From: Candidatus Shapirobacteria bacterium
GTDB taxonomy: Bacteria; Patescibacteriota; Microgenomatia; UBA12405
DNA: 64,000 nt
Direction of reading: 5' to 3'
Assembly (NCBI GenBank): GCA_009885205.1
Contig: VFLE01000055.1
Span: 11,236-75,235, forward strand
The position numbers and the translations under genes are program-made. Of this stretch, positions 3,098-63,684 are shown in pieces. Each line of letters begins with the position of its first letter. Position 1 is the stretch's first letter. Under the pieces are notes generated by a model. That model did not search any database. It was given only the letters and a program-made list of their open reading frames with translations, and was not told where the DNA came from.

Positions 3098-3125
3098 GTA
3101 GAGACGCCCCGCGGGGCGTCTCTAC
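3098..3125. repeat. REP-like perfect palindrome, family A (GTAGAGACG-ccccgcgggg-CGTCTCTAC)
   Basis: 28-bp perfect inverted repeat, identical to the copy at 27732-27759. Confidence 0.9.
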
Positions 3126-3193
3126 AAAAAATCTCATTGGCAAATAATTATCAAGCTAAATTCTAGAACCTAAACAAAATACAAAATGTTAAA

Positions 3194-3272
3194 AGAGACG
3201 CCAAATTTGGTGTCTCTACAATGACACGAATATGCCGAATATTGGGGAATAAATGCATCGAAACAAACAATG
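3194..3272. repeat. Composite repeat: degenerate family-A palindrome + 21-nt linker + conserved 32-nt tail (copy 1 of 3)
   Basis: agagacgcc-aaattt-ggtgtctctac has one arm mismatch. It is followed by attggggaataaatgcatcgaaacaaacaatg. It abuts the uppP stop codon. Confidence 0.8.
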
Positions 3273-3275
3273 TTT

Positions 3276-4019
3276 TTATAAAACAAAGAATAGTATTCCA
3301 GATAAAATCAGTGTATAAACCCCAAAATACCAAAAGGAGTTTTTTTGGAGGATTTTGCGAAGATAGTAGAGGGCAATGATTCCAGTTATGGTGGTTAGAA
3401 TAAAAGTTGTGATAGAAACCGGATTAAAAAAAGAAGTAGTAAGCAACATTTTGTAATCGAGAACAATGGCGCCGAGGGAAGCGATAATAAAGAGGCAGAA
3501 AGAAAAATTAAAGGCTGCCAATGGGGCTAGACCGAGCAACAGGGCCGTGGCAATGGTGGCACCGGACCGGGAAACGGCGGGTAAGATGGCAACTGCTTGC
3601 ATTAATCCTATGATAAGGGCGGATTTGTAATTTAGTTTATTATTCTTAATTTTTATAAACTTGGTAGAGAACAATAAAATAGTTGTAATTAAAAATTCGT
3701 AAGGCATGAATTTGACACTGGAAAAGGTTGATTCGATAAAATCACGAAAAAATATTCCGGCAATAATAGCAGGGATAGTGCCAACGATTATATATTTTAA
3801 ATTGTCAAAAAAATATTTGATTTGATTCCTGAAGAAAAAAATGACCGAAAAAAGAGTGGCGGTGTTTAAAAATATATCGAGGGAAAGTGATGGAGTCAGG
3901 CCGAAAAAATGTTGAAGTAAGTTTAAATGGCCTGAAGACGAAATTGGCAAAAATTCAGTAATGCCTTGGGTGAGACCGAGGAGATAGGATTGAAGTGCAG
4001 ACATGGAAAATAATAGCAC
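3276..4019 (-). CDS. uppP: Undecaprenyl-diphosphatase (UppP/BacA)
   Basis: 247 aa polytopic membrane protein with the BacA signature LGLTQGITEFLPISSSGHL. Confidence 0.85.
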   Translation of the reverse strand: MLLFSMSALQSYLLGLTQGITEFLPISSSGHLNLLQHFFGLTPSLSLDIFLNTATLFSVIFFFRNQIKYFFDNLKYIIVGTIPAIIAGIFFRDFIESTFSSVKFMPYEFLITTILLFSTKFIKIKNNKLNYKSALIIGLMQAVAILPAVSRSGATIATALLLGLAPLAAFNFSFCLFIIASLGAIVLDYKMLLTTSFFNPVSITTFILTTITGIIALYYLRKILQKNSFWYFGVYTLILSGILFFVL

Positions 4020-4027
4020 AAAACAGA

Positions 4028-4441
4028 TTATCTCTTTGGAGATTGTTTCTTGTGTCTGGCTTTGCCACCAGTTCCAACCATACGGCGTTCACGGACGCGA
4101 GAGTCGACAGTTAGTAATCCGGCTTGTCGTAAGACCAAGGTAAAATCAACATCAATTTTTTGTAAAGCCCGGGCAATAGCCAGGGTTAAAGCTTCGCGTT
4201 GACCCTCTTTGCCACCACCAATGATTTTGGCCTCAAAATAATATTTGCCAGTGGTTTTGGTTTCAGTAAAAGGTTTATTTAAAAATGTGTGAGTGGTAGG
4301 GAAATAAAGATCAACTGTTTTTTTGTTGACAGTTGAAATTTCTTTGCCTGTAAAAAGCTTGATAGTAGCAACAGCCGATTTGCGTCGACCTAGAGCCGAG
4401 GTATATTTTTTATTTGATTTTGTCACCATATTGATGTTCAC
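4028..4441 (-). CDS. rpsI: 30S ribosomal protein S9
   Basis: GRRKSAVA motif and C-terminal ...KARHKKQSPKR. The start is probably an internal Met (4429). Confidence 0.9.
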   Translation of the reverse strand: MNINMVTKSNKKYTSALGRRKSAVATIKLFTGKEISTVNKKTVDLYFPTTHTFLNKPFTETKTTGKYYFEAKIIGGGKEGQREALTLAIARALQKIDVDFTLVLRQAGLLTVDSRVRERRMVGTGGKARHKKQSPKR

Positions 4442-4829
4442 TTCCAGTAAATAATTTTAAGCGAGCTAAACGACGATCACGTTGTTTATTTTTGGGGAGC
4501 ATGCCGTTGACACCATGCATAATGACTTGACGGGAGTCTTTGGCCATCATGTCTTTTAAGCTCATTTCTTTTAAATGGCCGGCAAAGGCGGTGTGATGAT
4601 AGTAAATTTTGTCGGTTAATTTTTTGCCAGTAACAACAACTTTGTCAGTATTTATGGCAATAACGAAATCACCATCATCGCGTTGAAAAGAAAAGGATGG
4701 TTTGTCCTTACCCATTAAAATATGGGCAATTTGGACACAAACACGACCCAGGGTTTGACCTTCGATATCGACTAAATGCCATTTGCGGACAACAGTATTT
4801 TCTTTGGTAATAGTTGATCTTAATTTCAT
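4410..4829 (-). CDS. rplM: 50S ribosomal protein L13
   Basis: 139 aa. WHLVDIEGQTLGRVCVQIAHILMGKDKP is typical of L13. Confidence 0.9.
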   Translation of the reverse strand: MKLRSTITKENTVVRKWHLVDIEGQTLGRVCVQIAHILMGKDKPSFSFQRDDGDFVIAINTDKVVVTGKKLTDKIYYHHTAFAGHLKEMSLKDMMAKDSRQVIMHGVNGMLPKNKQRDRRLARLKLFTGSEHQYGDKIK

Positions 4830-5248
4830 TTTATTTTTTTAACTTTAACTGTCTTTTTAATAATAATTTTTTCTTCAATTTTTGGAGTAACTAAATCTTT
4901 ATAAAAAGATAATTTTGATATTAGGGCGTTGTCACCTTGACGTAATTTTACCCTTTGAATTTTTAAAAAGTTGCTAGTACGACCAGAAAGTGAGGATTGG
5001 ATTTTGGCGACAATTTCGGTGACAAACTTATCATCATCAAAAGTTTTATTGATTTCTTTGATGTCATTAATACCACCCTTAATAGCCAAACCAGTAATTT
5101 TTTCGGCATTATTTAATATTGATTTTAATTTGGCTTCGGTGGAAGTAATAAAACCATAAGTAAATAAAGAACGAAGCATACTTCTAAACAAAGACCAACG
5201 TAACTTGGCGGTTCTGTTTAATTGTCGACCTAAAATCCGATGTCTCAT
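4826..5248 (-). CDS. rplQ: 50S ribosomal protein L17
   Basis: N-terminal MRHRILGRQLNRTAKLR is the L17 signature. Confidence 0.9.
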   Translation of the reverse strand: MRHRILGRQLNRTAKLRWSLFRSMLRSLFTYGFITSTEAKLKSILNNAEKITGLAIKGGINDIKEINKTFDDDKFVTEIVAKIQSSLSGRTSNFLKIQRVKLRQGDNALISKLSFYKDLVTPKIEEKIIIKKTVKVKKIK

Positions 5249-5251
5249 TTT

Positions 5252-6172
5252 TTATTTGCTCCAGGAATAGCCTTTGTCTTTGAGCCAGGCATCGATAACT
5301 TTTAATGATTTTTCGCCAACATTTTTTGATTTGGAAACTTCACCGCGTCCAGCTTTGGTGAGACTATCGATATTGCCGAAACCAGCTTTCTTTAAAGCAT
5401 TGGTAACACGAAGAGGTAATTCGATTTCTTCGACGGAAATGTCAGATAAAAGACTGCCGGGGTTACTAGCAATAGTAATGACTTCGTCGCTAAATTCTTG
5501 GGTGTCAAAAATTTGACCAAGAGAATTAATTAAATCTTTGGCGGCAGATTTTAAGGCAACTTCGGGAGTGACTGAACCATCAGTCCAAACATCCATAGTT
5601 AATTTGTCGTAATTTGATTTTTTACCAAGGCGAGTGGGCTCAACTGTATAATTGGCTTTTAAAACTGGAGTAAAAGTAGCATCAAGAATAATTTCGCCAA
5701 CAACATCGGTTTTTTGTTCTTTGGCCATGGTGTAACCAACACCGCGTTCAACTTGAAGCTCGATTTTTAGTTTGGCTTTGTCGTCAGTTAGAGTAGCAAT
5801 AATTTGGTCGGGGTTAGCAACTTTGCAAGAAGTTGAATCGGCAATATCACCGGCGGTAATCACACCTTTACCTTTTTTATCCAAAACTAAGATAGTTGGA
5901 TCTTCTTGATTATAAGTAAATTTTACTTTTTTAAGATTTAGGGAAACTTCAACTAGATCTTCTTTGACTCCTGGTAGAGTGGTAAAAAGATGGGTAGCCC
6001 CGGCTATTTTAATCCGAGTAATGGCGGCTCCAGGAACAGTGATAAGTAAAACTCGACGGAGCGAATTGCCCAAAGTATGGCCAAAACCACCAAATAATGG
6101 ACTCATTTCAAACTGACCAAAAGTGGCAGTTGATTTAAGTGTTTTGAGATGAAAATGGCTGGTGTCAATCAT
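5252..6172 (-). CDS. rpoA: DNA-directed RNA polymerase alpha subunit (short, 306 aa)
   Basis: N-terminal-domain motifs (GHTLGNSLRRVLL) and a C-terminal-domain helix-hairpin-helix. It lies between rplQ and rpsD as in the alpha operon. Confidence 0.9.
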   Translation of the reverse strand: MIDTSHFHLKTLKSTATFGQFEMSPLFGGFGHTLGNSLRRVLLITVPGAAITRIKIAGATHLFTTLPGVKEDLVEVSLNLKKVKFTYNQEDPTILVLDKKGKGVITAGDIADSTSCKVANPDQIIATLTDDKAKLKIELQVERGVGYTMAKEQKTDVVGEIILDATFTPVLKANYTVEPTRLGKKSNYDKLTMDVWTDGSVTPEVALKSAAKDLINSLGQIFDTQEFSDEVITIASNPGSLLSDISVEEIELPLRVTNALKKAGFGNIDSLTKAGRGEVSKSKNVGEKSLKVIDAWLKDKGYSWSK

Positions 6173-6181
6173 ATTTTTGTT

Positions 6182-6814
6182 TTACCTTGAATAATAATCA
6201 ATAATTAAATTGATGTTGACTCCAGAAATACTAGAATCAACAACAGGTAGAGAGGCTGTTTTAAAAGAGAACTTGGATTTGTTTACTTCAATCCAGTCTG
6301 GTGATTTATAATCTTTATCAGATATACGTAATAATTCGCCAGACTTGACAATTATTTTTGGATTTAATGAGATTGTGTCTCCAACTTTAACTGAGTATGA
6401 GGGAATATTGAGGATTTTATCATTAACTAAAATTTGTTTGTGAGAAACTAGTGATCGAGCATGGGAACGGGATAAAGCTAGACCAGACACAAAAACAGCG
6501 TTGTCGAGACGACGTTCGAGAAGTGAGAGTAAGTTTTCACCAACTAATCCTTTCATTAGTTTGGCTTTGTCGTAGTAATTTCGGAATTGGGTTTCAAGTA
6601 GTCCACCATAATAACGCTTGGCGAGTTGCTTGGCACGAAGCTGAATAGCAAAATCGGAAAGTTTTTTAGTTCGTTTGAGACCGTGCATACCAGGGCGAAC
6701 GGCACCTTTTTTATCTATGGGACATTTGGGAGACAAACAACGAGCGCCTTTCAAAAAGAGCTTTGTGCCTTCAGTTCGGCATAATCGACATTTAGTATCA
6801 AGTGTAGAACGCAT
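6182..6814 (-). CDS. rpsD: 30S ribosomal protein S4 (Zn-ribbon type)
   Basis: CRLCRTEGTKLFLKGARCLSPKC C4 knuckle plus an S4 domain. Confidence 0.9.
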   Translation of the reverse strand: MRSTLDTKCRLCRTEGTKLFLKGARCLSPKCPIDKKGAVRPGMHGLKRTKKLSDFAIQLRAKQLAKRYYGGLLETQFRNYYDKAKLMKGLVGENLLSLLERRLDNAVFVSGLALSRSHARSLVSHKQILVNDKILNIPSYSVKVGDTISLNPKIIVKSGELLRISDKDYKSPDWIEVNKSKFSFKTASLPVVDSSISGVNINLIIDYYSR

Positions 6815-6822
6815 AGTTTTGT

Positions 6823-7239
6823 TTAGGCACGTCGCTGTTTGGGCGGACGAGGACCATTGTGAGGGATGGGGGTAATGTCAGAAATTTGTTCAACTTCAAA
6901 ATCTCGTTTAGAACGAAGATATCGAAGAGCCGCATCACGACCAGTACCTGGACCCTTTAAATAAACAAATAACTTTTTGACTCCATGTTTTTTGACTTCT
7001 TCCAAAGCTCGTTCAATAGCGGTAGTGGCAGCAAATGGAGTAGATTTTCTTGACCCCTTAAAACCACAACGACCACTAGACGACCATGACAAGGTTGAAC
7101 CGGCCATGTCAGTAACCGTGACTAAAGTGTTGTTAAAAGTTGATTGAATAAAAAGTTTGGCATCAGAAATATTTTTAAGGACACCTTTCTTTTTGGTGGA
7201 AATTTTTGGTTTGTTTTTTGGTTCTTCTTTGGTGGTCAT
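6823..7239 (-). CDS. rpsK: 30S ribosomal protein S11
   Basis: 138 aa with S11 signature GSRKSTPFAA...GPGTGRDAALR. Confidence 0.9.
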   Translation of the reverse strand: MTTKEEPKNKPKISTKKKGVLKNISDAKLFIQSTFNNTLVTVTDMAGSTLSWSSSGRCGFKGSRKSTPFAATTAIERALEEVKKHGVKKLFVYLKGPGTGRDAALRYLRSKRDFEVEQISDITPIPHNGPRPPKQRRA

Positions 7240-7244
7240 ATTAT

Positions 7245-8985: not shown

Positions 8986-9566
8986 TTTATTTTTTCAATC
9001 TCTTTAACTATATCTTCAAAAATAGGTTCGATGGGGCGATTGCCGTTGATATCGATGAATTTTCCTTTACCTACAAAATAATCTTTGATACCTTCGATGT
9101 TGTCATCATAAAATTTTTGACGATTGGCAATATCCTGTGGGGTATTGTCAGTACGAGTTTTGTCTTGAAATTCTTCACCGGCTTTATCTCGGCGGTCTTT
9201 TATTTGTTGGAAAGATAGAGTTAAATGAATTAAAGTAGTCAGTGGGGCATTGTTTTTGCGTAAATAAAATTCAACAATACGGCCTTGATTTAAAACTCGG
9301 GGAAAACCATCGACGATAAAATTTTTATAGTCGAGTGATTTTAGGTGGGAAATTAAAACATCGAAAACTAAATCATCGGGGACGAGTTTTCCATTATCAA
9401 TATATGATTTGGCTTCGATACCAAAACCAGATTTTTTAGCAATTTCGTCACGAAGCAACTGCCCCATGGAAATATGGGTTAAATTATATTTTTCTGCCAC
9501 CATTTTGGCCTGAGTGGTTTTGCCACAACCTGATGGACCGATGATGAAAAGATTTAGAGGTGTCAT
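8982..9566 (-). CDS. adk: Adenylate kinase
   Basis: P-loop IIGPSGCGKTTQAKMVAEKY and the AMP/ATP-binding regions. Confidence 0.9.
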   Translation of the reverse strand: MTPLNLFIIGPSGCGKTTQAKMVAEKYNLTHISMGQLLRDEIAKKSGFGIEAKSYIDNGKLVPDDLVFDVLISHLKSLDYKNFIVDGFPRVLNQGRIVEFYLRKNNAPLTTLIHLTLSFQQIKDRRDKAGEEFQDKTRTDNTPQDIANRQKFYDDNIEGIKDYFVGKGKFIDINGNRPIEPIFEDIVKEIEKIK

Positions 9567-9619: not shown

Positions 9620-9700
9620 GTAGAGACGCCATATATGGCGTCTCTACATGGAATCGAAAAGGCCGATTATTGGGGAGTAAACGCATCGAAACAAACATTG
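9620..9700. repeat. Composite repeat: family-A palindrome (core ccatatatgg) + 21-nt linker + conserved 32-nt tail (copy 2 of 3)
   Basis: Perfect 28-bp palindrome at 9620-9647, then attggggagtaaacgcatcgaaacaaacattg. It lies between secY and adk inside the r-protein operon. Confidence 0.85.
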
Positions 9701-9712
9701 ATAGGGAATTTT

Positions 9713-10993
9713 TTAATACGATAATTTTTCGTAATGATGCATTTGGACGACGTTTTCGATCTTACGGGTTAATTCGAGAATTACTGAGACGACGATGAGA
9801 ACACTGGTTCCACCAACAGTTAGAGAGGTGACACCAGTCATATTTTGAATTATAGATGGAACAATAGCGATGAGACCTAAAAATACAGCACCAACTAAGA
9901 CAACTCGATTTAATAAAAATTTAAGTCGATTTTCGGTGGCAATACCAGGACGGATACCGGGCATAAATCCGCCAGATTTGCGAAGCTCGTCGGCGACGTC
10001 TTTTGGTTTAAAGACCACCGAGGCATAGAAAAAAGTAAAGGCCAAGACTAATATAAAATAGAAAATAATATAAACATAACTGGTTTGGGAAAAAGTTTTG
10101 GTCAATTGAGAGGCAAATGAGGCAATGGCTGAGTTACTATTATTAACCAAGGCCTGACCTAGTAATGAGGGCAATGAAGCGAGAGAGACGGCAAAAATAA
10201 TGGGCATGACGCCGGCAACATTGACCTTCATGGGTAAATAAGTTACTTGGGCTCGTTTGGCATAATTGATGGGAATACGCAAAATGGCCTCTTCAACCAT
10301 GACTACGGCTAAAATAATACCAAAGGCCAGAGCAGCAAATAATAATATATTAAATAATGTTTCGGGATTGGAAAAATCGGATAAGGCTAAAGTTTGGAAA
10401 AGACCGACAGGTAGACGAGAAATGATACCAGCAAAGATAATAATAGAGATACCATTACCCACTCCAAAATCATTAATTAGCTCACCTAAAAATATCATAA
10501 TCATGGTTCCGGCGACCATGGAGGTGATCAGTGAGGTCATGGCGAGTATATTTAAACTGCCGATGATATTTTGAGAGTGAAGAATGCCGTACATAGCAAA
10601 AGCCTGAAAAGCGGCCAATGGAATGGTAATTATTCGGGTATATTGGTTGATTTTGGCTCGACCATACTCCCCTTCTTTTTGTAAAGCTTTTAACTCAGGG
10701 ATAACAAAAGCCAACATTTGGAGCATAATTGAGGCGTTGATGTAAGGATTTAAACCCAAAGCGGCAATAGAAAAATTGGCTAGGGTTCCGCCGGAAAATA
10801 TATCTAGCAATGATAATAGTTGATTTTGAGCAAAAAAAGATCGAAGTAAGGTAAAATTTACCCCAGGGACAGGAATATGGGCAATAAAACGAAATAAAAC
10901 TAAAATACCCAGAGTAATTAAAATTTTCTTTTTGAGAATAGGGGTTTTGAAGCCCTCAAGGTAAAGAGATAAGGATTTGACCAAATAGTTCAT
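9713..10993 (-). CDS. secY: Preprotein translocase subunit SecY
   Basis: 426 aa with 10 TM helices and conserved SecY motifs. It lies between rplO and adk. Confidence 0.9.
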
Positions 10994-12806: not shown

Positions 12807-13175
12807 TTACCAAATTTGGGCGATAAGTTCACCCCCAACTTTTTTGGCGACTGCTTCACGTTGAGACAGAAGACCAGATGAGGTGGAAATAATAATTAAA
12901 GATTTGCTAGATTTTCCCCAGGGAATATTGTGAGAATTAACATAAAGATGACGACCGGGTTTGGATAATATTTCGACATCATTGACAACTGGATTTGAAA
13001 TGGTGATTTTATGTGTCTTTGAATCGGCCGAAAAATCGGAAATAAATCCATGTTTTTTTAATTTGGCACAAATATCACGGGAAAAACTGGAGTCGATAGC
13101 CACAAAAGATTGGCGTTTGCTCAAAGAAGCATTTTTGACCCTAATTAATAAATCGCAGTATAAAGAGTTCATCAT
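12807..13175 (-). CDS. rpsH: 30S ribosomal protein S8
   Basis: 122 aa. N-terminal DLLIRVKNA and C-terminal SQREAVAKKVGGELIAQIW. Confidence 0.9.
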   Translation of the reverse strand: MMNSLYCDLLIRVKNASLSKRQSFVAIDSSFSRDICAKLKKHGFISDFSADSKTHKITISNPVVNDVEILSKPGRHLYVNSHNIPWGKSSKSLIIISTSSGLLSQREAVAKKVGGELIAQIW

Positions 13176-16545: not shown

Positions 16546-16815
16546 TTAGGTTTTTTCAATAACACGTTTAACAATACGACCATGACCTTTGAAGGTTCTA
16601 GTTAAAGAGAATTCCCCCAAACGGTGACCGACCATGTCTTCGGTAATAAAGACGTTAATAAACTTTTTGCCATTGTGAACACCAAAATTTTTGCCGACAA
16701 ACTCGGGAGGGATTTGACAGTTACGAGAATAGGTGTTGACGACACCAGTGGTTTTGGTAACTTTTTCAAGTAGTCGAGGATCGATATATGGACCTTTTTT
16801 GCTTGATCTTGACAT
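16546..16815 (-). CDS. rpsS: 30S ribosomal protein S19
   Basis: 89 aa. [16 protein letters not shown]...[16 protein letters not shown]. Confidence 0.9.
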
Positions 16816-27731: not shown

Positions 27732-27759
27732 GTAGAGACGCCCCGCGGGGCGTCTCTAC
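27732..27759. repeat. REP-like perfect palindrome, family A (core ccccgcgggg), identical to 3098-3125
   Basis: 28-bp perfect inverted repeat, upstream of the 26274..27641 gene. Confidence 0.9.
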
Positions 27760-36250: not shown

Positions 36251-37147
36251 TTAAAAATCGAATTCTTTAGTAATTTTTTGGGTCTTTTTATCAACATCAA
36301 ACCAATTAAAAGTGGCGGTATGGTCATCTTTAATTTCATAAACATGAATCACCCATGCAGATTTGTCGTCTGTATCGTGGTCATACTCAATAATAGTATT
36401 TGGAACTGTTTTTCGATAATTTATGACTTCAGGAAGTTGAGAAACTAAATACATTGCTGTTTGTTGATATGCAAGTTCAGCCATGTCAATGAATTTAAAG
36501 GTGGAGAGGATTTGGTTAAAATCAGACTGAAGTAAAGTTTCTGCAGGATATTTGGCAATCGTAATAATATTATTTTTATAAAACAAATAATAGGTGATGC
36601 CTGTACCATTCCCCTGCCATTCTAAATATTTTGCTGGATAACCTCCAATAGTTAGACCATTTGTTGAGATAACTTTCCCTCCAATTCCTGAAGGATCGTC
36701 TTCTATACTCTTTAGTTGTTTGGCAAAATATTCTTCTAAAGTCTGATTGGCTGTATTTGGACTAACCCATATTTCAACTTTTAATTCATTGCCTTGCATT
36801 GAATAGCCTTTACGATTAGTTAAATCAACTGGACTCATAAGTGAAAGATATAATGTTTCACTGTTATTTGTAGGAGAATTTTCAGTTAGAGAATAATTTT
36901 TAGGATAATCAAAATTAAATCCAAAATCTGTATTTATATATTTGCCGTTATAATTTACGATTGGTAATGGAGTTGTAATTGCGGTTGTTTGGGATAAATC
37001 TACAACTGGATTGGTTATTGGGGTAATAGTTGAAATTTCAGTAGTTTTTACTGATTGGCGGCCGAGGAGAAAAACTCCGGTGAGAAATAAGACAAAAGCG
37101 AGGGAGATTATAATTAAATTTAAATAATTTGTTTTTGGTTTGTCCAT
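36251..37147 (-). CDS. Membrane-anchored hypothetical protein, paralog 1 (signal-anchor + extracytoplasmic domains)
   Basis: The start is taken as MDKPKTNYLN (37147), which aligns with paralog 2 MDKPKPNYLN. The track ORF begins at an upstream TTG. One N-terminal TM helix is followed by an ILSTFKF motif. Confidence 0.6.
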   Translation of the reverse strand: MDKPKTNYLNLIIISLAFVLFLTGVFLLGRQSVKTTEISTITPITNPVVDLSQTTAITTPLPIVNYNGKYINTDFGFNFDYPKNYSLTENSPTNNSETLYLSLMSPVDLTNRKGYSMQGNELKVEIWVSPNTANQTLEEYFAKQLKSIEDDPSGIGGKVISTNGLTIGGYPAKYLEWQGNGTGITYYLFYKNNIITIAKYPAETLLQSDFNQILSTFKFIDMAELAYQQTAMYLVSQLPEVINYRKTVPNTIIEYDHDTDDKSAWVIHVYEIKDDHTATFNWFDVDKKTQKITKEFDF

Positions 37148-37188
37148 ATTAAAAGAGTAACATTTTTTGAAGGACAATAGGTCAAATT

Positions 37189-38181
37189 TTAGGGATTGAC
37201 CACTGTTTTTTGAAGAGTCTCAGGATTGATTGAATACAGATTTGTAATATTTTGGTCGTAAGGAATTTCTTTAACATTAAGTTGATTTGTTTTTGACCAA
37301 TTTAAACAATATGAAGATTGAATTCCAGAAAGTAATGTTTTACGTTGCTGTAGGTCAAAAATGGTGTAACCCCAGTAACCGGAAGTGCCGTATTCTATAC
37401 ACGCAAATTTTTTATTTGGTGAAAATATCAATTGACCTGGATAATCAACTGGCTTTTTGTCAAAGATATATTTTTTGTTGTTAAAAATAAAATATGCAGA
37501 GTAATCTTTGACGTCAATTTGGAGTTCCTTGCTATTTGGTAAATTAATTAAATTTACTATATTTTCGGTGAATTTAAAGGTAGAGAGGATTTCCTGATAT
37601 ATATTAATATCATTAGAATTTATGACACCTTCTTTTGGTTGAAGTGTTAAAACGTAGATATTGTTACCGTTCTTAAAATATGTAGAAAATACCGAAAAAC
37701 CAGCAGCATTATAGTTTTCTTGACGTTGAATACAATTTAATCCAGCTATGACAGTTTTTTTGGTTGAAATAACAGCAATTGAGGATGTACCTTCATATTC
37801 AGTTGAGTTTTGTTTATCTTTTTTTGACAAATACTCCGAAATTGTTTTTGAATTGTCTTCTGTAATATCGATAAGAAAGATCGATTGATTTGGTGAAGAA
37901 ATATACACATAATTTCCAGTTTCTAAAAGAGCTTCTTTGTTTGCATTCCAACTTGATGGATAATCAAAGGAAAAAATATTTTTACTGTCAGTATATGTTT
38001 TCCAATTTTGGATTGGATCAGTGACACTGGTTGGTATTGCCGTTGTTTGGGGTAAAACGGTGATGGGGTTGGGAATGGTTTTTACTGACTGACGGCCGAG
38101 GTAGAAGACACTGACAATAAATAAAACAAAAGCAAGGGAGATTAAAATTATATTTAGATAATTTGGTTTGGGTTTGTCCAT
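37189..38181 (-). CDS. Membrane-anchored hypothetical protein, paralog 2
   Basis: 330 aa. N-terminus MDKPKPNYLNIILISLAFVLFIVSVFYLGRQSVKT is about 80% nt-identical to paralog 1. It shares the EILSTFKF motif. Confidence 0.6.
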   Translation of the reverse strand: MDKPKPNYLNIILISLAFVLFIVSVFYLGRQSVKTIPNPITVLPQTTAIPTSVTDPIQNWKTYTDSKNIFSFDYPSSWNANKEALLETGNYVYISSPNQSIFLIDITEDNSKTISEYLSKKDKQNSTEYEGTSSIAVISTKKTVIAGLNCIQRQENYNAAGFSVFSTYFKNGNNIYVLTLQPKEGVINSNDINIYQEILSTFKFTENIVNLINLPNSKELQIDVKDYSAYFIFNNKKYIFDKKPVDYPGQLIFSPNKKFACIEYGTSGYWGYTIFDLQQRKTLLSGIQSSYCLNWSKTNQLNVKEIPYDQNITNLYSINPETLQKTVVNP

Positions 38182-38196
38182 ATAAAAAGAATAGCA

Positions 38197-43762: not shown

Positions 43763-45727
43763 TTAGTTTTTAATGATGATATTGATTAAGTTAGATTTGA
43801 CAGGTAATCGGTGAAGTAAATTAAAAAACCAAAGAGAATTGTTTAAATCATGTTGATAATATTTGGGTAAGGTATTTAAAATTGATTTTAGATCTGATTC
43901 TTTTTTACCGACTAACTTTAATTTGAGTTGATCAATATTTATCAAAGGATTAGCAACACCAGTTAAAGTTAGTTGACCAGAATTATAATTTAAAGTTACT
44001 TTAGCCGAATTTTTGTCTAAAAGAGTCAGACTCTCCCGCTTGGGGAAAAAAGTGGAAATTATATTTTGTTTTTGAAGTAAATCAAAATATAAAAAACTGA
44101 CCTTGGAAGAAAGTTGTAAAGATAAAACGTCGGCTTCTTCCCCAACTTCACGATTAAAAGTCGTTTTTTGATTTTCATAGACCATGGTTGAATCAAGAAT
44201 TGAATTTTCAGTTGATTTTTGGGAATTTATATCATTTTTGGCCTGTTGTTTTAACAATTCTTTGGCTGATTCTAAAACCTTGGTTTTGTCAGCTTGAGTG
44301 ACAACCGCGATTTGATCGCGAGTACCACCAGTAAAGGCTTTGGTTGACTTGGCCAATAAATTGGGGTCACTTTTGATGGTAAAAGCAATATTTTCTGATA
44401 AATTATATTCTGGCCCAATGATTTTAGCAGTCACGGCTGCCTTGACCTGACCCATAGTGATGATGCCAGTATCTAAATTAGAAGTACTGGCAGGGAGCAA
44501 AATGTTGTTGGTGGTTTCAAATTCTTTGCCAGAAGTATCGGTAATAACGAGGCCTTTGTTAACGGTAATTGATCGATCGAGTTTATTAAAAACGATGACT
44601 TCACCTTTGGCTTTTTCCCCGACTTCTTTTTTGCCAGTAGTAGAGGAAGAAGTACCGACACTTAAATCAAAAGTTTTGGTGGTGACATTGGAGGCAGGAT
44701 CTGGAGTAAAAGCAAAGATTTCGCTAAACTCGGTCGGGTTTTGATAGATGGTTAAATCGACCCTAGAAAAATAAAGCGGTAAAACCGGTAAAAATGGCAA
44801 TAAAACTAGGGGTAAAAGATAAATGTAGTTAAATTTTAATTTTGGAAAAGAAAAATTATGTAGGAACGCATCATGATGCGTTCCTACGTTTGAATTTTGA
44901 GGTGGCTCTTCGAGAACAGGATTGACTTCAACTGGTGAATCTTCTGCTGTAAATCCGAGAGAAGTGGCATCTATCTCTTCTGTGGTATCGGAAACAGGAA
45001 TAACATCGATGATGTTATTAGTAATTGAGGTGGCGGCGGGAGTAATTTGTTTTTTGACAGTATCGACAAAAATTTGGGCCAAAGATGAAGGATCAAGAGA
45101 AATAACATTGGGTAAGTGTAAAAATGTTTCTAAGTCTTGGCGAGCTAACCAGTTATAATTTTTTAAATCGTCAATAATTTCGGGGGAATAACTACCAATA
45201 ACAATTATTTTGGGTGGTAGGGCCGAGGTAAATTCAAGAGCTGATAATTGTTCTTCAAATTTGGAAACGGAAAAATCGGCCGAAAAATCGGCTGTAAATC
45301 GTTTTTTAATTTGACCTAAATAGACTAGAGAAAGATGATAATGTTTGGGACTAAAATAAACTAAAAGATAAGAACCGGGAAAAGAGTCATCATGATCATA
45401 AGATTCAATAAAAGCATCGTCATAACTAACAAAACCAAGGGGGTGGAATTTTAATTTTTGACAAATAGATTTGAGATTGGTTAGTATTTGGGGGGAAATA
45501 CTACCATCTGGTCCCACCCAATTTGGTGGAACAATAAAAGCACAATTTGAAGTTTCGTCATTATTTTGGGTAGAAATAGAGGTATCGATGGCTTTTAAAA
45601 GTGAGTCGGGGTTGTCAGAACTCCATTCTATTTCTTGACCAAGACTGATGATTTTATTGGAAACCAGAGAAACCTGAGCGGTATCAGATGTGATGGAAAT
45701 TAACCAATAAGCATTGTCGTGCATCAC
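43763..45727 (-). CDS. Hypothetical 654-aa ORF. An actin-like (PilM/FtsA-like?) N-region and a TM + extracytoplasmic C-region are joined through an in-frame REP-like palindrome, so it may be two genes.
   Basis: Residues around 280-290 (GTHHDAFLHNF) are the translation of palindrome 44860-44887. Immediately after comes a hydrophobic segment LKFNYIYLLPLVLLPFLPVLPLYF. There is no ATG between the palindrome and the TM. Confidence 0.4.
   Translation of the reverse strand: MMHDNAYWLISITSDTAQVSLVSNKIISLGQEIEWSSDNPDSLLKAIDTSISTQNNDETSNCAFIVPPNWVGPDGSISPQILTNLKSICQKLKFHPLGFVSYDDAFIESYDHDDSFPGSYLLVYFSPKHYHLSLVYLGQIKKRFTADFSADFSVSKFEEQLSALEFTSALPPKIIVIGSYSPEIIDDLKNYNWLARQDLETFLHLPNVISLDPSSLAQIFVDTVKKQITPAATSITNNIIDVIPVSDTTEEIDATSLGFTAEDSPVEVNPVLEEPPQNSNVGTHHDAFLHNFSFPKLKFNYIYLLPLVLLPFLPVLPLYFSRVDLTIYQNPTEFSEIFAFTPDPASNVTTKTFDLSVGTSSSTTGKKEVGEKAKGEVIVFNKLDRSITVNKGLVITDTSGKEFETTNNILLPASTSNLDTGIITMGQVKAAVTAKIIGPEYNLSENIAFTIKSDPNLLAKSTKAFTGGTRDQIAVVTQADKTKVLESAKELLKQQAKNDINSQKSTENSILDSTMVYENQKTTFNREVGEEADVLSLQLSSKVSFLYFDLLQKQNIISTFFPKRESLTLLDKNSAKVTLNYNSGQLTLTGVANPLINIDQLKLKLVGKKESDLKSILNTLPKYYQHDLNNSLWFFNLLHRLPVKSNLINIIIKN
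44860..44887. repeat. REP-like perfect palindrome, family B (GTAGGAAC-gcatcatgatgc-GTTCCTAC), inside an ORF
   Basis: 28-bp perfect inverted repeat. Confidence 0.9.
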
Positions 45728-47511: not shown

Positions 47512-47539
47512 GTAGAGACGTGATTAATCACGTCTCTAC
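47512..47539. repeat. REP-like palindrome, family A (core tgattaatca), identical to 63657-63684
   Basis: 28-bp perfect inverted repeat. Confidence 0.9.
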
Positions 47540-47565: not shown

Positions 47566-47591
47566 AGGAACAGACACACAGGTCTGTTCCT
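47566..47591. repeat. REP-like palindrome, family B variant (AGGAACAGAC-acacag-GTCTGTTCCT)
   Basis: A 10-bp stem with a 6-nt loop. It is closely related to 62757-62782. Confidence 0.8.
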
Positions 47592-47710
47592 ACGTTTTTA
47601 ATCGTTTAAAAACTTTTTTAGATTTGATTACTTTTTTGGGTGTTAGATTTAGAGTTTCGACATCAGAGGGGATGGTGACGGATATTTTTTTGATTGGCTC
47701 AACAATGTTA

Positions 47711-47750
47711 GTAGAGACGTAGCGCGCTACGTCTCTACGCTTTTTTTTTA
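47711..47750 (+). terminator. Family-A palindrome (core tagcgcgcta) followed by T9: intrinsic-terminator architecture on the plus strand
   Basis: gtagagacgtagcgcgctacgtctctac + gcttttttttta. Confidence 0.5.
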
Positions 47751-47767
47751 TTATTTTTTTCGATTTT

Positions 47768-47795
47768 GTAGAGACGCCCCTAGGGGCGTCTCTAC
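47768..47795. repeat. REP-like palindrome, family A (core cccctagggg)
   Basis: 28-bp perfect inverted repeat. Confidence 0.9.
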
Positions 47796-48047
47796 TATTG
47801 TCTATTAATTTATCTGTTTCACCAAAAAAATCGTTAAATTTATTTTTTATTTTTTTGATAATTTTGGCTTTGTCCTCAGCCGATATTAAAACAACTGCAG
47901 AAGCGATGATGGCGCCAATTATTAATCCCATTATAAAAAGTGAATTGTTATTATTTTTACTATCATTACACATTTTTTGTATTTTATTTTAATTTAATTT
48001 CGATTTAACTTTCGCCTCGCCGGCGGGGCTATGATCATCGCACATAT

Positions 48048-52553: not shown

Positions 52554-52727
52554 ACAAAATAATAGCAAATTTACAGGGACGAATGCATCGTGGTACCACC
52601 CTTTTTTAATCTCTTTTGAATTTACAGTTCAGTTCTGGAGCTACTTTCGTAGTCACCTCCACGGCGGGACACCGTTTCATAGGTTTTGAGAATTATATCA
52701 GATTTTTTATCGTGGTATAAATAATAA

Positions 52728-53033
52728 ATGACTAAGACAAAATCATATTTAACTTTACTTGCTTTAAACTTTGTATTTTTGTTTTTATTTTTGAATTTTT
52801 ATTCAGGTACTATTTATGGAAAGAATAATCTTGGTGGTGGTGAGCCTGGTCTGGCGGAATTCAGTGTATTTGTGTGGGGATTGGTGTATTACCCAGTTGG
52901 TATTTTGTTATCAATTAGTTTTTTTAATAATATCGTTAATAAATTTTCAATGGTTAAAATTAAATTTATACATAAGCTCTTGATTTCCTCAATAATTTTA
53001 TCTTTTTGTTGGACTTGGTTTTTATTTAGATAA
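52728..53033 (+). CDS. Hypothetical small membrane protein (3 TM)
   Basis: 101 aa, hydrophobic, with no recognisable domain. Confidence 0.35.
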   Translation: MTKTKSYLTLLALNFVFLFLFLNFYSGTIYGKNNLGGGEPGLAEFSVFVWGLVYYPVGILLSISFFNNIVNKFSMVKIKFIHKLLISSIILSFCWTWFLFR

Positions 53034-53101
53034 TACAAAAAGCCCGCGGTGCACGAAATAAATTTCATACACAACGCGAGCTTGAATCAATAATAACAGA
53101 C

Positions 53102-56145: not shown

Positions 56146-56226
56146 GTAGAGACGCACCATGGTGCGTCTCTACAGGGATGCGAATATGCCTAATATTGGG
56201 GAATAAACGCAGCGAAACAATCATTG
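56146..56226. repeat. Composite repeat: family-A palindrome (core caccatggtg) + 21-nt linker + conserved 32-nt tail (copy 3 of 3)
   Basis: Perfect palindrome at 56146-56173, then attggggaataaacgcagcgaaacaatcattg. It lies between pnp and the lon-like gene. Confidence 0.85.
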
Positions 56227-56232
56227 AATATT

Positions 56233-56260
56233 GTAGGAACATGCCGCGGCATGTTCCTAC
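56233..56260. repeat. REP-like palindrome, family B (GTAGGAAC-atgccgcggcat-GTTCCTAC)
   Basis: 28-bp perfect inverted repeat, 7 nt after the composite repeat and 17 nt before the pnp stop. Confidence 0.9.
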
Positions 56261-59231: not shown

Positions 59232-59424
59232 AACTTTCTGTTCCGGTAGCTAATTTATTTTTTGCAGAACAAGTTCTGGCTCCAGTTAACGAATTAGTAT
59301 TATTTTTTTTTAAAACACTTAACATTATTTTTTTTGACGGTTCTACCTCATTAATACTAGTCGGGAACCATTTTTGGCAACGAAGACAAATTGGATAGCT
59401 TTCTGATTGTGCTTGATTTGGCAT
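59197..59424 (-). CDS. Hypothetical small Cys-containing protein (75 aa; CxxC...C...C)
   Basis: It overlaps the 115-aa ORF by 35 nt and has no recognised family. Confidence 0.25.
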   Translation of the reverse strand: MPNQAQSESYPICLRCQKWFPTSINEVEPSKKIMLSVLKKNNTNSLTGARTCSAKNKLATGTESCVVSEEFFPRS

Positions 59425-59438
59425 ACTCTTTTTAACTT

Positions 59439-60251
59439 TTAGACAGTGGGATTAAAGGTTGGATTTGGTGTGAACTGAGGGGTGGTGGTAGGTGTTGAAG
59501 CTGGGATGTCAGCAATGGGGTTAACCTCTGGAGTTACGGGAGTAGTAGTTGGAGTTTCGGGCTGGGTGGCACGGAGACAGAGGGCACCGGCTTCAAAAGA
59601 TTCGGGGGAAACATTAACAGAGAATGATTGGGTAGCAACCCGAAGACCAATTAAAATGTCTTTGCCGGAGTCTTGGTCTAAGGTTAATCCTAACATAGGC
59701 AATAAGAAGGTAAATATTTCAGAAAAGGGAGCATCGGGGTCGATTAAACTAGCTTTAGCCCAAGATTTGGGAGTATTGGTGGGTGAAATATAAATCCAAT
59801 TGCCCGAGTTAACCATAGAGGCTTTGTCACCTAAAGGCATTTCATCACCTAACATAAAACAAATATCGGCAGAACCAGAGCTATTGTTAATTGAAATTTG
59901 ATTTTGATCAATTTTAGTCGCTCCTGTTTTGGTTTTGACAACCAAATTTAGTTTGCCACCATCATCGTTGTAGGAAACCTGATCAATTTGATCCAAAGGA
60001 TAGGAGACAGTAATAACCAAATCGGCAGGATTATAGGAATCAGTAATCAATTCAAGTCCACTTAATTTGGAATAATTTTGATCGGGTTTTTGGAGTGACA
60101 AAACTTGGGCGGTTTTACCAGCTTTTTTTAAAGCTAGGGCTAAACCTAAAGCTGAACCAATTGAATCAACTGACATGGTAGGAACCACGATTAGGGCAGA
60201 TTTGGCGGTATCTAAAAGAGATTTAATTTCGGTGACGTTGTAGTTTTTCAT
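59439..60251 (-). CDS. DHH-family (NrnA-like) protein with degenerate DHH motifs and a Pro/Thr-rich C-terminal tail
   Basis: 270 aa. IVVPTMSVDSIGSALGLALAL aligns to the DHH motif I/II region but lacks Asp and His. It sits downstream of infB, where rbfA-nrnA or rbfA-truB usually lie. Confidence 0.45.
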   Translation of the reverse strand: MKNYNVTEIKSLLDTAKSALIVVPTMSVDSIGSALGLALALKKAGKTAQVLSLQKPDQNYSKLSGLELITDSYNPADLVITVSYPLDQIDQVSYNDDGGKLNLVVKTKTGATKIDQNQISINNSSGSADICFMLGDEMPLGDKASMVNSGNWIYISPTNTPKSWAKASLIDPDAPFSEIFTFLLPMLGLTLDQDSGKDILIGLRVATQSFSVNVSPESFEAGALCLRATQPETPTTTPVTPEVNPIADIPASTPTTTPQFTPNPTFNPTV

Positions 60252-60266
60252 AATGGTTATGATAGT

Positions 60267-61679
60267 CTATTTTTCAACTTTATAGGCTATTATAACATCA
60301 TTTATTTTAAAATCAACATATGGTCGAAAAGTGATGCCATATTGATGGCCAGCTTTGGCGGTATCAACAATGTCTTTGGCCTGACGAATTCCTTCGATTT
60401 TAGTATTTTTGATAATAATATCGTCACGTTTTAAGTGAATGTTGTCGCCTTTAGTCAACAAACCTTTGGTGACTTCGATACCAGCGATGCGGACTTTGTC
60501 AATTTTAAACTCGGCAATAATTTTGGCCTCACCGATGGTAGTTTCTTCAATGGTGGGGTCAAGCATTAATAAAACTTGTTTTTGAATATTTTCTAAAATT
60601 TCGTAAATGATTTTTGATTCAAAGATAGGTACTTTTTCGTTGTCAGCTAAATTTTTGATAAACCTGGGTACTGGTACATTGTAGGCAAAAACTTGGCCAT
60701 GAGCGGAAGCGGCCATGTTGACATCATTGTCGGTGATAGTGCCAACGCCAGAGGCGAGCAAGAAAACGTCGTCGGAAAGAGAACTAAGGAGAGCTTCAAG
60801 AGTGCCCTGAACATCGGCTTTAATGACGATAGGTAGTCGAGGAGAGCCATCGGTTTTAGTTTGAGACAAACGAGTAGGATCGATAGTGGAAGTAGATTCG
60901 GTTTTAAGGCTAGAAACTGGAGTACCAACTAAAGGGACTGATTCAAAACCGAGAATTTCGACAGCAGATGAGGGTAAGGCGATGGGAATAGACATGGCTT
61001 TGACCTTGCAGGGGATGTTTTGGGCAAAAATAATATCACCTAATTTAATTTGACCTTTTTTAACGATAAGGGTAGCGACGGGACCGCGACTTTTGTCGAG
61101 TAGTGACTCGATAACCACGGCCTCGAGTGGTTCGTCCTTACTATCGGTTAATTCCATAATTTCGGCGTGTAAAAATATACTATCTAGGAGGGCGTCAATC
61201 CCCTGACCGGTTTTACCAGAAACGGGGAATAGAGCCACCTGACCACCATATTCTTCGGGGGTTAATTCGAGTTCAACCAATTGACCTTTGACTTTTTCTG
61301 GGGAACTATCGGCCATATCGACCTTGGTCATGGCGATAATGACAGGGGCATTGGTTTTTTTAATTTCTTTGATACATTCCTTGGTTTGGGCCATAACTCC
61401 ATCAACAGCAGAAATGACGAGAACAATAATGTCGGTAATTTGAGCACCACGAGAGCGCATTTGACAAAAAGCAGCGTGACCAGGAGTATCGATAAAGGTG
61501 ATTTTGCCTGATTTTCCGGATTTAGACGAGACATCGACAGTATAGGCAGAAATGTGTTGAGTGATTCCACCCGCTTCGCGAGCAGCGACACTACTACCAC
61601 GGATTTTATCCAAAAGAGTAGTCTTGCCATGGTCAACATGGCCCATTATTGTGACAATGGGTGGGCGGAAATTTTGCAT
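60267..61679 (-). CDS. infB: Translation initiation factor IF-2 (short form starting at the G domain)
   Basis: 470 aa. [19 protein letters not shown] and NKVD motifs plus the C-terminal beta-barrels. Confidence 0.9.
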
Positions 61680-61682
61680 AAT

Positions 61683-62672
61683 TTAGAGTTTTGATCCCTG
61701 AACTTTTATTTCTAAACCCGTCAAAATACCTGCTAAACGAACATTTTCACCGCCAGAACCAATGGCCAGGGCCAAATCAGATTCAGGAACTTCGACTAGA
61801 GCCAGACCGTTGGTGATAGAAATAACTTTGACATTGGAGGCTGGAGAAAGGGCATTGGCAATAAACTGTTTTTTGTCCTTAGAATAGGATATAACGTCAA
61901 CTTTTTCCGATTGAGGCAACTCGTTTAAAATAGCCTGAATACGAATACCTTTTTGACCAATACAGGAACCGACAGGGTCGACACCCGCTTGGGATGATGA
62001 GACAGCAACCTTGGCCCTGGCACCAGCATCGCGAGCAATAGTTTCAATAGTGACAGCTCGGTTGCCAACCTCGGGAACTTCACGAACAAAAAGTTGTTTG
62101 ATAAATTCGGCGTCAGCTCGGGATAAAATTATATCTTTGCGACCAGTTTCTGCATCTTGATGAATAGATTTAATTAAAAACTGTTTTTTACTGCCAAGTT
62201 GCAGGCTTTCGCCACGAATTTGCTCGTCTTTGGGACAAATACCTTCGGTCTTGCCAATACCAACGGTAAGACGATAGGAATCGTTGCGTAAAATATAACC
62301 CTGGACGAGAGTGCCTATTTTATGAGCATACTCGGCCATGATGGTATCTTTTTCGGCTTCATGAATACGTTGATCGATAACGTTTTTGGCGGTAACAGCG
62401 GCAATTCGACCAAATCCAGGAGGGGTAACATTGAGACGTTTTTTGTCGGTTATTTCAAAGATGGCAAAGGAGCCTGATTCTGGGGCCAACTCAACTTCAA
62501 AAACAGTGTCATCGGCAACAATGTTGCCATGTTCTTTTTGATCACGTTTGTAGGCAGAAATTAGACCAGCTTCAATTGAGTCAAGAATTTCTTGGACGGG
62601 AATATTTTTTTCACCGGCAATTTGGGCCACAGCTGAGGCGAATTCTGTTTTTGGTAGTTTTTTGATATCCAT
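61683..62672 (-). CDS. nusA: Transcription termination/antitermination factor NusA
   Basis: Contains N-terminal, S1 and KH domains. The start is set at the internal Met ([11 protein letters not shown]), because the upstream part of the track ORF overlaps a terminator hairpin. Confidence 0.85.
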
Positions 62673-62687
62673 ATATTTATTTTTACT

Positions 62688-62710
62688 AAAAAAAAGGGCG
62701 TAAAACGCCC
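62688..62710 (-). terminator. Intrinsic terminator/attenuator between dnaJ and nusA
   Basis: Minus strand: GGGCG-uuuua-CGCCC followed by U8. It lies 16 nt upstream of the nusA ATG. Confidence 0.45.
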
Positions 62711-62756
62711 GTTTCACTAGCAAATATGTAACTTGGTTATTATAACACTAAATTTA

Positions 62757-62782
62757 AGGAACAGATACACGGATCTGTTCCT
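62757..62782. repeat. REP-like palindrome, family B variant (AGGAACAGAT-acacgg-ATCTGTTCCT), overlapping the dnaJ stop codon
   Basis: 10-bp stem with a 6-nt loop. It is closely related to 47566-47591. Confidence 0.8.
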
Positions 62783-63638
62783 ACAAACCCAATTCTTTGA
62801 TCAATTCTTTTTGATGTGTGGTTAATTTGGTGGGAATAAAAAGATTAAGGCGGATGTAAAGGTCACCTTTGCCAAAACCTTGGACATCGGTAATGCCGTG
62901 TCCACGAAGACGAATGAGGGTTCCGGGTTGAGTACCTGGTTTAATACGAATTTTAAGAGGTTTGTCTAAAGTAGGGACAGAAAGTTCGTCACCTAAAATA
63001 GCCTGAACTAGGGTAATATCTTGATTTATAAATAAATTATTTCCCTCACGGGTAAAAATTTTGTCAGGGAGAACATCGATATACAAAATAAAATCACCAA
63101 ATTTTATCCTCTGCCCATCATCAACCCCGGCAGGGATAGTAACTTTACGACGACTGCCATCTAAAACAATTTCTTTCTTACAGCCGTTGGCGGCATCAAT
63201 AAAAGACAATTGGATTTTGTAAGTAGGGACTTGTCGAGAACGAGATTGACCCATACCCCCGTTGCCGAAGAATTGTTCGAAAATATCAAAAGGATTACTA
63301 AAACCGCCAAAGTCAAAATCGTCTTGTCCCCCACCTTGACTACTTTGCCAAGTAAAGTTGAATGGTCCATTTTGTTGGGTGTGAGTGTGACCACCAAAAT
63401 TGCTACCGGCCGAGGATGGGTCAAAAGCGGCGTGGCCAAATTGGTCGTAGGCGGACTTTTTTTGAGGATTACTTAAAACCTCGTAGGCACCATTGATTTC
63501 TTTAAATTTTTCCTCGGCATCGGGGGCTTTATTGCGATCGGGGTGAAACTCCATGGCTTTTTTGCGATAAGCTGACTTAATATCCGCCGCCGATGCGCCT
63601 TTTGCTAATCCTAATGTATCGTAAAAATCTGGTTTCAT
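62781..63638 (-). CDS. dnaJ: DnaJ-family chaperone (J domain + G/F region + C-terminal substrate-binding domains, no Zn-finger; CbpA-like)
   Basis: 285 aa. J-domain HPD motif (MEFHPDRNK) and a Gly/Phe-rich linker. Confidence 0.85.
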   Translation of the reverse strand: MKPDFYDTLGLAKGASAADIKSAYRKKAMEFHPDRNKAPDAEEKFKEINGAYEVLSNPQKKSAYDQFGHAAFDPSSAGSNFGGHTHTQQNGPFNFTWQSSQGGGQDDFDFGGFSNPFDIFEQFFGNGGMGQSRSRQVPTYKIQLSFIDAANGCKKEIVLDGSRRKVTIPAGVDDGQRIKFGDFILYIDVLPDKIFTREGNNLFINQDITLVQAILGDELSVPTLDKPLKIRIKPGTQPGTLIRLRGHGITDVQGFGKGDLYIRLNLFIPTKLTTHQKELIKELGL

Positions 63639-63656
63639 TGATTATATATTTTACAG

Positions 63657-63684
63657 GTAGAGACGTGATTAATCACGTCTCTAC
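63657..63684. repeat. REP-like palindrome, family A (core tgattaatca), identical to 47512-47539
   Basis: 28-bp perfect inverted repeat between dnaK and dnaJ. Confidence 0.9.

Follow-up and report, generated by a model that had tools for sequence, protein, structure and literature searches.

Palindromes dispersed through a Candidatus Shapirobacteria genome are probably double-foot REPs of the RAYT system

Introduction

What are the short, near-identical palindromes that recur in a stretch of Candidatus Shapirobacteria DNA, and what could have placed them there? The stretch, 64,000 nt of contig VFLE01000055.1 (assembly GCA_009885205.1, positions 11,236 to 75,235 of the forward strand; hereafter the window), carries ten perfect 28-bp palindromes and three related elements. 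An initial annotation, made from the letters alone, had likened them to repetitive extragenic palindromes (REPs), the sequences associated with REP-associated tyrosine transposases (RAYTs). Judging from the sequence of the window and of related genomes, we consider it probable (about 0.82) that the elements are double-foot REPs, non-autonomous partners of the single-copy Y1 HUH enzyme RAYT/TnpA_REP of subclass 2.4 (group 4). The partnership is supported by the agreement of three lines of evidence: the match to a published REP family, the presence of a RAYT in relatives, and the outcome of checks that could have refuted it (copies beyond the window, no U-tracts of ordinary terminators, and differences in site occupancy between genomes).

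Double-foot REPs flank TnpA_REP genes of subclass 2.4 (Quentin, Siguier, Chandler and Fichant 2018, PMC6006769), which correspond to RAYT group 4 of Bertels et al. 2017 (PMC5581495). Enzymes of this subclass are common in Cyanobacteria and Bacteroidetes and scattered in other phyla, and no other subclass has REPs in frame within its tnpA_REP gene; RAYT genes in general are enriched in large genomes (PMC6006769). Our analysis adds the Candidate Phyla Radiation (CPR) to the range of the REP/RAYT system, the class and the family A sequence described below being already published.

Ten perfect palindromes and three related elements in 64 kb

A pattern search of the window retrieved eight exact copies of family A, GTAGAGACG-N10-CGTCTCTAC, at 3098, 9620, 27732, 47512, 47711, 47768, 56146 and 63657, and two of family B, GTAGGAAC-N12-GTTCCTAC, at 44860 and 56233. 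Neither the family A nor the family B pattern arose in 100 dinucleotide-preserving shuffles of the window, which bears out the existence of the palindrome family first proposed from the letters alone. All ten copies are perfect 28-bp palindromes that start with GTAG and end with CTAC, with 14 of 14 pairs complementary in each. An unbiased scan for maximal perfect palindromes of at least 20 bp recovered exactly these ten, the only other perfect palindromes of at least 16 bp in the 64 kb being two AT-rich 16-mers. Every occurrence of the 9-mer GTAGAGACG in the window (8/8) falls within a perfect palindrome, and no orphan half-site of it was found there. The palindromes reach a density of 1.6 per 10 kb, and their stems fold at -18 to -25 kcal/mol as RNA or DNA. 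Because a perfect palindrome offers the same substrate, namely the same GTAG-footed hairpin, on both strands, the elements have no orientation.

A decayed copy and a pair of single-foot GTAGGAACAGAY hairpins bring the total to 13; of the 11 double-foot copies, 10 are perfect. The decayed copy, first placed at 3194, does exist, its true span being 3192-3219. The two AGGAACAGAY variants at 47566 and 62757 had been taken for perfect hairpins, which they are not: both lie on the minus strand, with a single GTAG foot and a 10-bp stem closed by a 6-nt loop without self-complementarity, and they differ from each other by a single compensatory C-G to T-A change in the stem. The rule that cores are always self-complementary thus holds for 10 of the 13 elements and fails for the decayed copy and both single-foot variants. 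Exact pattern matching confirmed two pairs of identical 28-mers at unrelated sites (3098 and 27732; 47512 and 63657), which plausibly reflect recent copying. Ten of the 13 elements are extragenic, and three (44860, 47711 and 47768), rather than the one initially noticed, lie in frame within conserved open reading frames (ORFs).

Family A matches published double-foot REPs

By sequence comparison, family A is a published REP family. Its arms and 28-nt length are identical to those of subclass 2.4 REPs in Table S1 of PMC6006769, which lists GTAGAGACGCACGGCCGTGCGTCTCTAC from Chloroflexus aggregans and GTAGAGACGCAATGCATTGCGTCTCTAC from Chlorobium chlorochromatii, both as 'double foot', and gives close variants for Calothrix, Cytophaga, Aequorivita and Emticicia. 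We found the family A pattern in at least 120 loci of species-representative genomes; the phyla among the genome matches listed include Bacteroidota, Cyanobacteria, Chloroflexota, Acidobacteriota, Planctomycetota and Spirochaetota. It is also present in 116 IMG/VR viral contigs, in some of them between phage capsid, protease and portal genes. Genome and viral matches together exceed 230 loci. The copies are therefore not confined to the window, a possibility that the initial annotation had singled out for checking. Across phyla, no conserved flanks were detected beyond a weak T...A extension; since the flanks otherwise share nothing, the 28-mer itself is the unit. The GTAGGAAC arms of family B had no match elsewhere in the 323 loci examined, and eight viral matches to these arms, all with asymmetric cores, may be unrelated hairpins.

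In the viral contigs L125-L127, L141 and L147, a phage major-capsid-like gene lies between two family A palindromes spaced at exactly 1,857 bp. These contigs represent the same phage in several samples; phages thus carry these REPs.

RAYT genes accompany the palindrome in related genomes

HuH/Y1 proteins near the palindrome were sought by motif scan and tblastn over all examined loci. Such proteins adjoin it in Bacteroidota loci and in two CPR relatives: L241, part of an 845-kb contig, and L246, whose PNPases are 74% and 73% identical, respectively, to that of the window. A homologue search added a third RAYT-bearing relative, L322 (GCA_964582365.1). In all three Shapirobacteria-like genomes the RAYT gene lies between rnj and proS (L241 18215-18880, L246 12567-13211, L322 6001-6573), holding a conserved position as would a vertically inherited gene. 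The gene is flanked by the same palindrome on one side or on both, and a further copy, intact or decayed, sits in frame within the gene. The order in L246 is REP, RAYT with internal REP, REP; in L322 a REP lies 42 nt upstream of the gene and the in-frame copy is decayed. The peptides encoded by in-frame REPs are FVSRDGINAVSNEK in L241, SCRDVACNVSTS in L246 and CRDVPQNVST in P0102, while the RAYT of Bacteroidota L054/L078 contains VETHGRASLQ.

The relatives' proteins share the motifs NH[LTV]H ... WQ ... YI[KQ]NN (NHLH, WQ and YIKNNP in L241; NHTH, WQ and YIQNNA in L246; NHVH, WQ and YIKNNI in P0102) and are 190-221 aa long, as against about 194 aa and NH[IFV]H / WQ / YIxNNP for subclass 2.4. 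They score above the threshold of Pfam PF01797 (Y1_Tnp). Their best NCBIfam match is REP-associated tyrosine transposase (NF047646), with E-values of 1e-11 to 1e-14 but scores below the 80-bit cut-off of that model; the IS200 profile gave E 0.006. More than 2,000 RAYT homologues were retrieved, some of them named 'REP element-mobilizing transposase RayT' by JGI and several derived from Candidatus Shapirobacteria. The published 28-mer match, together with a RAYT beside the same palindrome in three related genomes, sustains the REP/RAYT reading that the initial annotation had offered.

Occupancy differs between related genomes

A 949-kb Candidatus Shapirobacteria contig (L278/L320), which holds a homologue of a window protein, is fully syntenic with the window at 80-84% DNA identity. 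Nine window elements fall within the stretch that the two have in common, and the relative has a counterpart for only two of them. Clean empty sites were found in relatives for 44860, 47711, 47768 and the pnp-lon spacer; this spacer is 30-40 bp long and empty in L322, L241 and L246, compared with 209 bp in the window, where it contains a family B copy, a 54-nt tail (see below) and a family A copy. The presence/absence comparison envisaged at the outset revealed differences in occupancy. Most relatives have a much lower density than the window, and only the short RAYT-bearing stretches L246 and L322 equal it; more distant CPR loci mostly have no copies.

Two sites appear to be orthologous between the window and L278. 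At the first, upstream of the lon operon, they share identical arms and a conserved 54-nt tail, palindrome and tail together being 88% identical. The window copy has core CACCATGGTG and the L278 copy core CCCCGCGGGG, a difference of two symmetric change pairs, one of them at the apex. At the second, upstream of dnaJ (63657), L278 has a decayed copy that keeps the right arm and contains a different, near-palindromic core of 18 nt, and L238 has an unrelated GC-rich palindrome. The 62757 site is occupied by unrelated sequence in both L278 and L238.

On either side of dnaJ, where the window has REPs, L238 carries unrelated GC-rich inverted repeats, CACGCCCGGCAATGCCGGGCGTG and ACGTCATTGCGAG...CTCGCAATGACGT (~4095-4140 and ~5355-5460). 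Some hairpin seems to be kept at the dnaJ boundaries whatever its origin.

Palindromy extends through the hairpin apex

We compared 240 distinct copies from other genomes. At their two central pairs, complementarity reaches 76% and 87% of the copies, where 25% would be expected, and the central tetranucleotide is self-complementary in 136 of 202 copies with an intact stem, against an expected 6%. Two central pairs cannot base-pair in a 4-nt loop. Palindromy thus continues through the hairpin apex across the whole family, a general property of what the published descriptions consulted regard simply as the loop.

Some imperfect cores, CAAAATCTTG among them, are present in identical form at 9-16 separate sites, in either orientation. 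It follows that the element is copied in one piece and that neither half is regenerated from its partner. This rules out, as an obligatory step, that each copy is born perfect by half-to-half copying, and replication through a hairpin intermediate, initially invoked as the cause of the perfect cores, is likewise unsupported as an obligatory step. Candidate sources of new perfect cores are conversion between copies, foot-to-foot exchange, template switching and symmetric deletion in an inverted REP dimer, the last having been suggested in PMC6006769.

Double-foot REPs might also diversify by an undescribed symmetry-preserving process, either a RAYT-mediated exchange of the segment between the feet or a template-switch 'perfecting' of the palindrome. 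We regard this as unlikely. If true, it would explain the apex palindromy, the core swaps with arms kept at orthologous-looking sites, and how a burst of elements could arise in a CPR genome of ~0.9 Mb, possibly one that has lost its syntenic RAYT. A role for BsmBI-like GAGACG/CGTCTC sites in shaping the arms is unsupported, families B and C lacking the site.

Proposed mechanism and alternative explanations

By analogy with TnpA_REP of E. coli, S. maltophilia and Marinomonas and with IS200/IS605, the palindrome would fold in single-stranded DNA, for instance at a replication fork. RAYT would then recognise the stem and the GTAG guide, which would take the place of the IS200/IS605 guide sequence, cut beside the hairpin and transfer the strand. 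In this way, whole 28-mers could be copied or moved to new, mostly intergenic sites, and inserted copies, once transcribed, would be expected to form very stable stem-loops at gene boundaries. Catalysis by RAYT and any role in RNA are inferences. Cleavage and strand transfer (CST) of single-stranded REP by RAYT has been assayed directly (Corneloup et al. 2021, PMC8266576).

Several observations weigh against assigning the window elements to such a system. As initially stated, motif scan and tblastn found no Y1 transposase gene in the 64-kb window, where RAYT tblastn matches comprised the REP-encoded peptide only; the search for the enzyme thus succeeded in the three relatives and failed in the window. 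Relaxed tblastn detected no RAYT remnant in the rnj-proS slot of the window (52569-53101), and the slot lacks a RAYT in both the window and L278/L320, where only a decayed palindrome and a tail remain. The GTAGGAAC arms have no occurrence in Table S1 of PMC6006769, and GTAGGAAC-arm elements, both family B and single-foot, were not next to any RAYT in the loci examined. In the literature consulted, in vitro activity is reported only for TnpA_REP of E. coli, S. maltophilia and Marinomonas, none of which is described as subclass 2.4. Furthermore, palindromy at the apex is not required by the hairpin-recognition model.

The same REP family could also persist as a relic, that is, as neutral or exapted, immobile hairpins left behind in a lineage that has lost its RAYT. 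The enzyme-free window, the slot that is empty here and in L278/L320 and filled in L241, L246 and L322, and the decaying copy at 3192 all speak for this scenario. On the other hand, nearly all double-foot copies are perfect, two 28-mers occur as identical pairs at unrelated sites, the density exceeds that of most relatives, and most copies lack a counterpart in the 80-84% identical genome, which together argue for recent gain. Moreover, only 64 kb of a genome that is likely near 0.9 Mb, judging from the relative's 949-kb contig, is in view. We therefore find a purely relic status rather unlikely. Relatives with and without a RAYT in one slot provide a natural experiment on the persistence of REPs after loss of the enzyme.

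Explanations outside the REP/RAYT system fare worse. Intrinsic terminators or RNA-stabilising hairpins of independent origin would suit the position of most copies at gene ends and the stability of their stems, and a generic terminator scan does flag a few copies as terminator-like on the plus strand. These flags fall mainly on the antisense strand. On the sense (minus) strand, the 8 nt that follow the stem of an extragenic copy contain 1-4 T, in no case five or more; the check for a U-tract, proposed together with the initial annotation, thus found none on the sense strand after any extragenic copy. Three copies lie in frame within genes, and independent origin cannot explain identical 9-bp arms in unrelated phyla and beside RAYT, which makes this account very improbable. 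Operators similar to CIRCE, bound by a conserved dimeric DNA-binding regulator, would be consistent with 9-bp inverted arms at fixed spacing and with copies upstream of dnaJ and lon. The spacer here is itself palindromic, though, as that of an operator need not be, and copies are also found within coding regions and RAYT genes, past stop codons and among clustered structural genes of phages, with an occupancy that is not conserved between relatives; we attach next to no likelihood to this possibility. The elements are short and dispersed, and their hairpins are related to those read by Y1 transposases, as would befit remnant IS200/IS605 ends or miniature inverted-repeat transposable elements (MITEs) with the terminal inverted repeats of a classical transposase. 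Yet no tnpA, tnpB or other transposase lies beside any window copy, the flanks show no target-site duplication, and the relatives' enzyme scores as RAYT over IS200 and occupies a conserved syntenic slot like a housekeeping gene. Such an origin is accordingly highly unlikely, and the identification as double-foot REPs remains the one that we favour.

Comparison with known systems

The resemblance to the double-foot REPs of PMC6006769 covers the 28-nt unit with its 5' GTAG and 3' CTAC, the identical GTAGAGACG/CGTCTCTAC arms, the self-complementary central tetranucleotide (GGCC, CATG, TGCA and AATT in Table S1), the REPs beside and in frame inside the relatives' RAYT, and the patchy spread over phyla. 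The window departs from that description in its CPR host, with a genome near 0.9 Mb as opposed to the enrichment of RAYTs in large genomes, in the additional GTAGGAAC arms, in the single-foot GTAGGAACAGAY variant and the 54-nt tail, neither of which is in Table S1, and in having no RAYT of its own. What is new is the CPR host (~0.9 Mb), the GTAGGAAC arm variants, the 54-nt tail and a syntenic RAYT slot, occupied in some relatives but not here. In the literature searched, we found no paper that combines RAYT with CPR or Patescibacteria.

Canonical REP/REPIN-RAYT systems of Enterobacteria and Pseudomonas (subclasses 2.2 and 2.5; groups 2 and 3 of Bertels et al.) share with these elements the GT[AG]G foot, the mostly extragenic location, the single-copy domesticated Y1 enzyme and occasional in-frame intragenic copies. 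Canonical REPs, however, have one foot, an often bulged and imperfect stem and typically an arrangement in inverted doublets (REPINs), whereas a single, fully symmetric 28-mer takes the place of the doublet here. For group 4, only about 14 copies of flanking 16-mers were reported (PMC5581495); because the core is variable, counting 16-mers underestimates the REPs of this group.

With the subterminal hairpins of IS200/IS605, the palindromes have in common a hairpin in single-stranded DNA, a 5' guide tetranucleotide and a Y1 HUH enzyme as reader. They differ in that no transposase lies between hairpins, tnpB and insertion-sequence copies are absent, and the relatives' enzyme is RAYT-like. They also recall Rho-independent terminators, in being GC-containing stem-loops at gene ends, from which they are set apart by the missing sense-strand U-tract, the sequence conservation across phyla and the intragenic location of some copies.

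Individual elements and their gene context

The window encodes a ribosomal-protein cluster, rpoB/C, EF-Tu, SecY, Adk, a short AlaRS, PNPase, RNase J, NusA, IF-2 and DnaJ. The first family A copy (3098..3125, core CCCCGCGGGG) is an exact pattern match whose perfect palindrome extends to 32 bp; it lies between convergent genes, a 2-oxoacid oxidoreductase beta-like gene and uppP. The decayed copy, AAAGAGACGCCAAATTTGGTGTCTCTAC (3192..3219), has lost its left GTAG foot and has one G-T mismatch. It is followed by a 54-nt tail (3220..3273, minus strand) that begins 3 nt past the uppP stop in minus-strand reading. The copy in the secY/adk spacer, correctly located by the initial annotation, spans 9620..9647 (core CCATATATGG) and adjoins a second tail (9648..9701, minus strand). 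At 27732..27759 stands the same 28-mer as at 3098 (core CCCCGCGGGG), and 22 nt of its left flank are ~73% similar to the flank of that copy (repeat family D3).

The family B copy at 44860..44887 (GTAGGAAC arms, core GCATCATGATGC) lies in frame in a gene for a 654-aa conserved hypothetical protein. It is translated as VGTHHDAFL within a variable linker, at a point where 15 of 15 aligned homologues have a gap. Upstream of alaS, a family A copy with core TGATTAATCA (47512..47539) occupies a position where the relative L320 has a 151-aa gene instead. Nearby, a small membrane-protein gene (ORF 47590-47973) contains two clean in-frame insertions, at 47711..47738 (core TAGCGCGCTA) and 47768..47795 (core CCCCTAGGGG); the L320 orthologue lacks both and shows a 30-nt gap in place of the latter. 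In the pnp-lon spacer, the family A copy with core CACCATGGTG (56146..56173) lies upstream of the lon-like gene and adjoins the third tail (56174..56227, minus strand), and the family B copy with core ATGCCGCGGCAT (56233..56260) lies 16 nt downstream of the pnp stop. The last family A copy (63657..63684, core TGATTAATCA) is upstream of dnaJ and repeats the 28-mer at 47512.

Both single-foot REPs, GTAGGAACAGAC-CTGTGT-GTCTGTTCCT (47566..47593, minus strand) and GTAGGAACAGAT-CCGTGT-ATCTGTTCCT (62757..62784, minus strand), overlap the end of a gene. The dnaJ stop had been located inside the latter element, and it is indeed the TAG of its GTAG foot (62781-62784); the stop of ORF 47590-47973 is likewise the TAG of the foot at 47590-47593. 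In L238, dnaJ has a native ...TTGTAG end without any REP, and for this reason the single-foot hairpin may have landed just after a pre-existing GTAG at the stop codon.

These elements matter for annotation, as 28-mers lie in frame in three genes, REPs overlap two stop codons, and short-read assemblies break at them. Logan short-read contigs L319 (same strain, position 1) and L323 (a relative, positions 1-28) begin inside or at a 28-bp palindrome, from which we conclude that the repeats fragment assemblies. Exact matches to window proteins were confined to short Logan contigs of the same strain (SRR8670883 and SRR8670873).

The 54-nt tail and other observations

The 54-nt tail, CAnGGAnnCGAATATGCCGAATATTGGGGAATAAACGCATCGAAACAAACATTGA, always adjoins one side of a family A palindrome and forms with it an 82-nt composite repeat. 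Its three window copies, which alignment and blastn grouped as repeat family D1, have further counterparts in L278 (~12951-13006 and ~16591-16653) and L240 (~9221-9279 and ~9692-9743). The tail is restricted to the closest relatives, and its orientation always agrees with that of the flanking genes; on the sense strand it presents TTGTTT-N17-AATATT just ahead of the palindrome. No convincing fold beyond the REP stem was obtained for the tail as a structured RNA, and a consensus scan did not flag it as a sigma-70 promoter. Rfam and tRNA scans of the window gave no matches.

Two further features of the window concern its genes. A direct repeat of 119 nt with 82% identity (37044-37162 and 38078-38196, 1,034 bp apart) lies within the adjacent paralogous ORFs 36251-37177 and 37189-38181 and appears to reflect a tandem gene duplication that has nothing to do with the REPs. 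Nearly all window genes, including the ribosomal-protein cluster and rpoB/C, are on the C-rich strand. A disparity in strand composition has reportedly been described for one Microgenomates genome. In the window, the GC skew at third codon positions, expressed for the plus strand, lies between +0.3 and +0.6 in almost all of the genes examined, whichever strand they are on; the exception is a plus-strand gene with +0.05.

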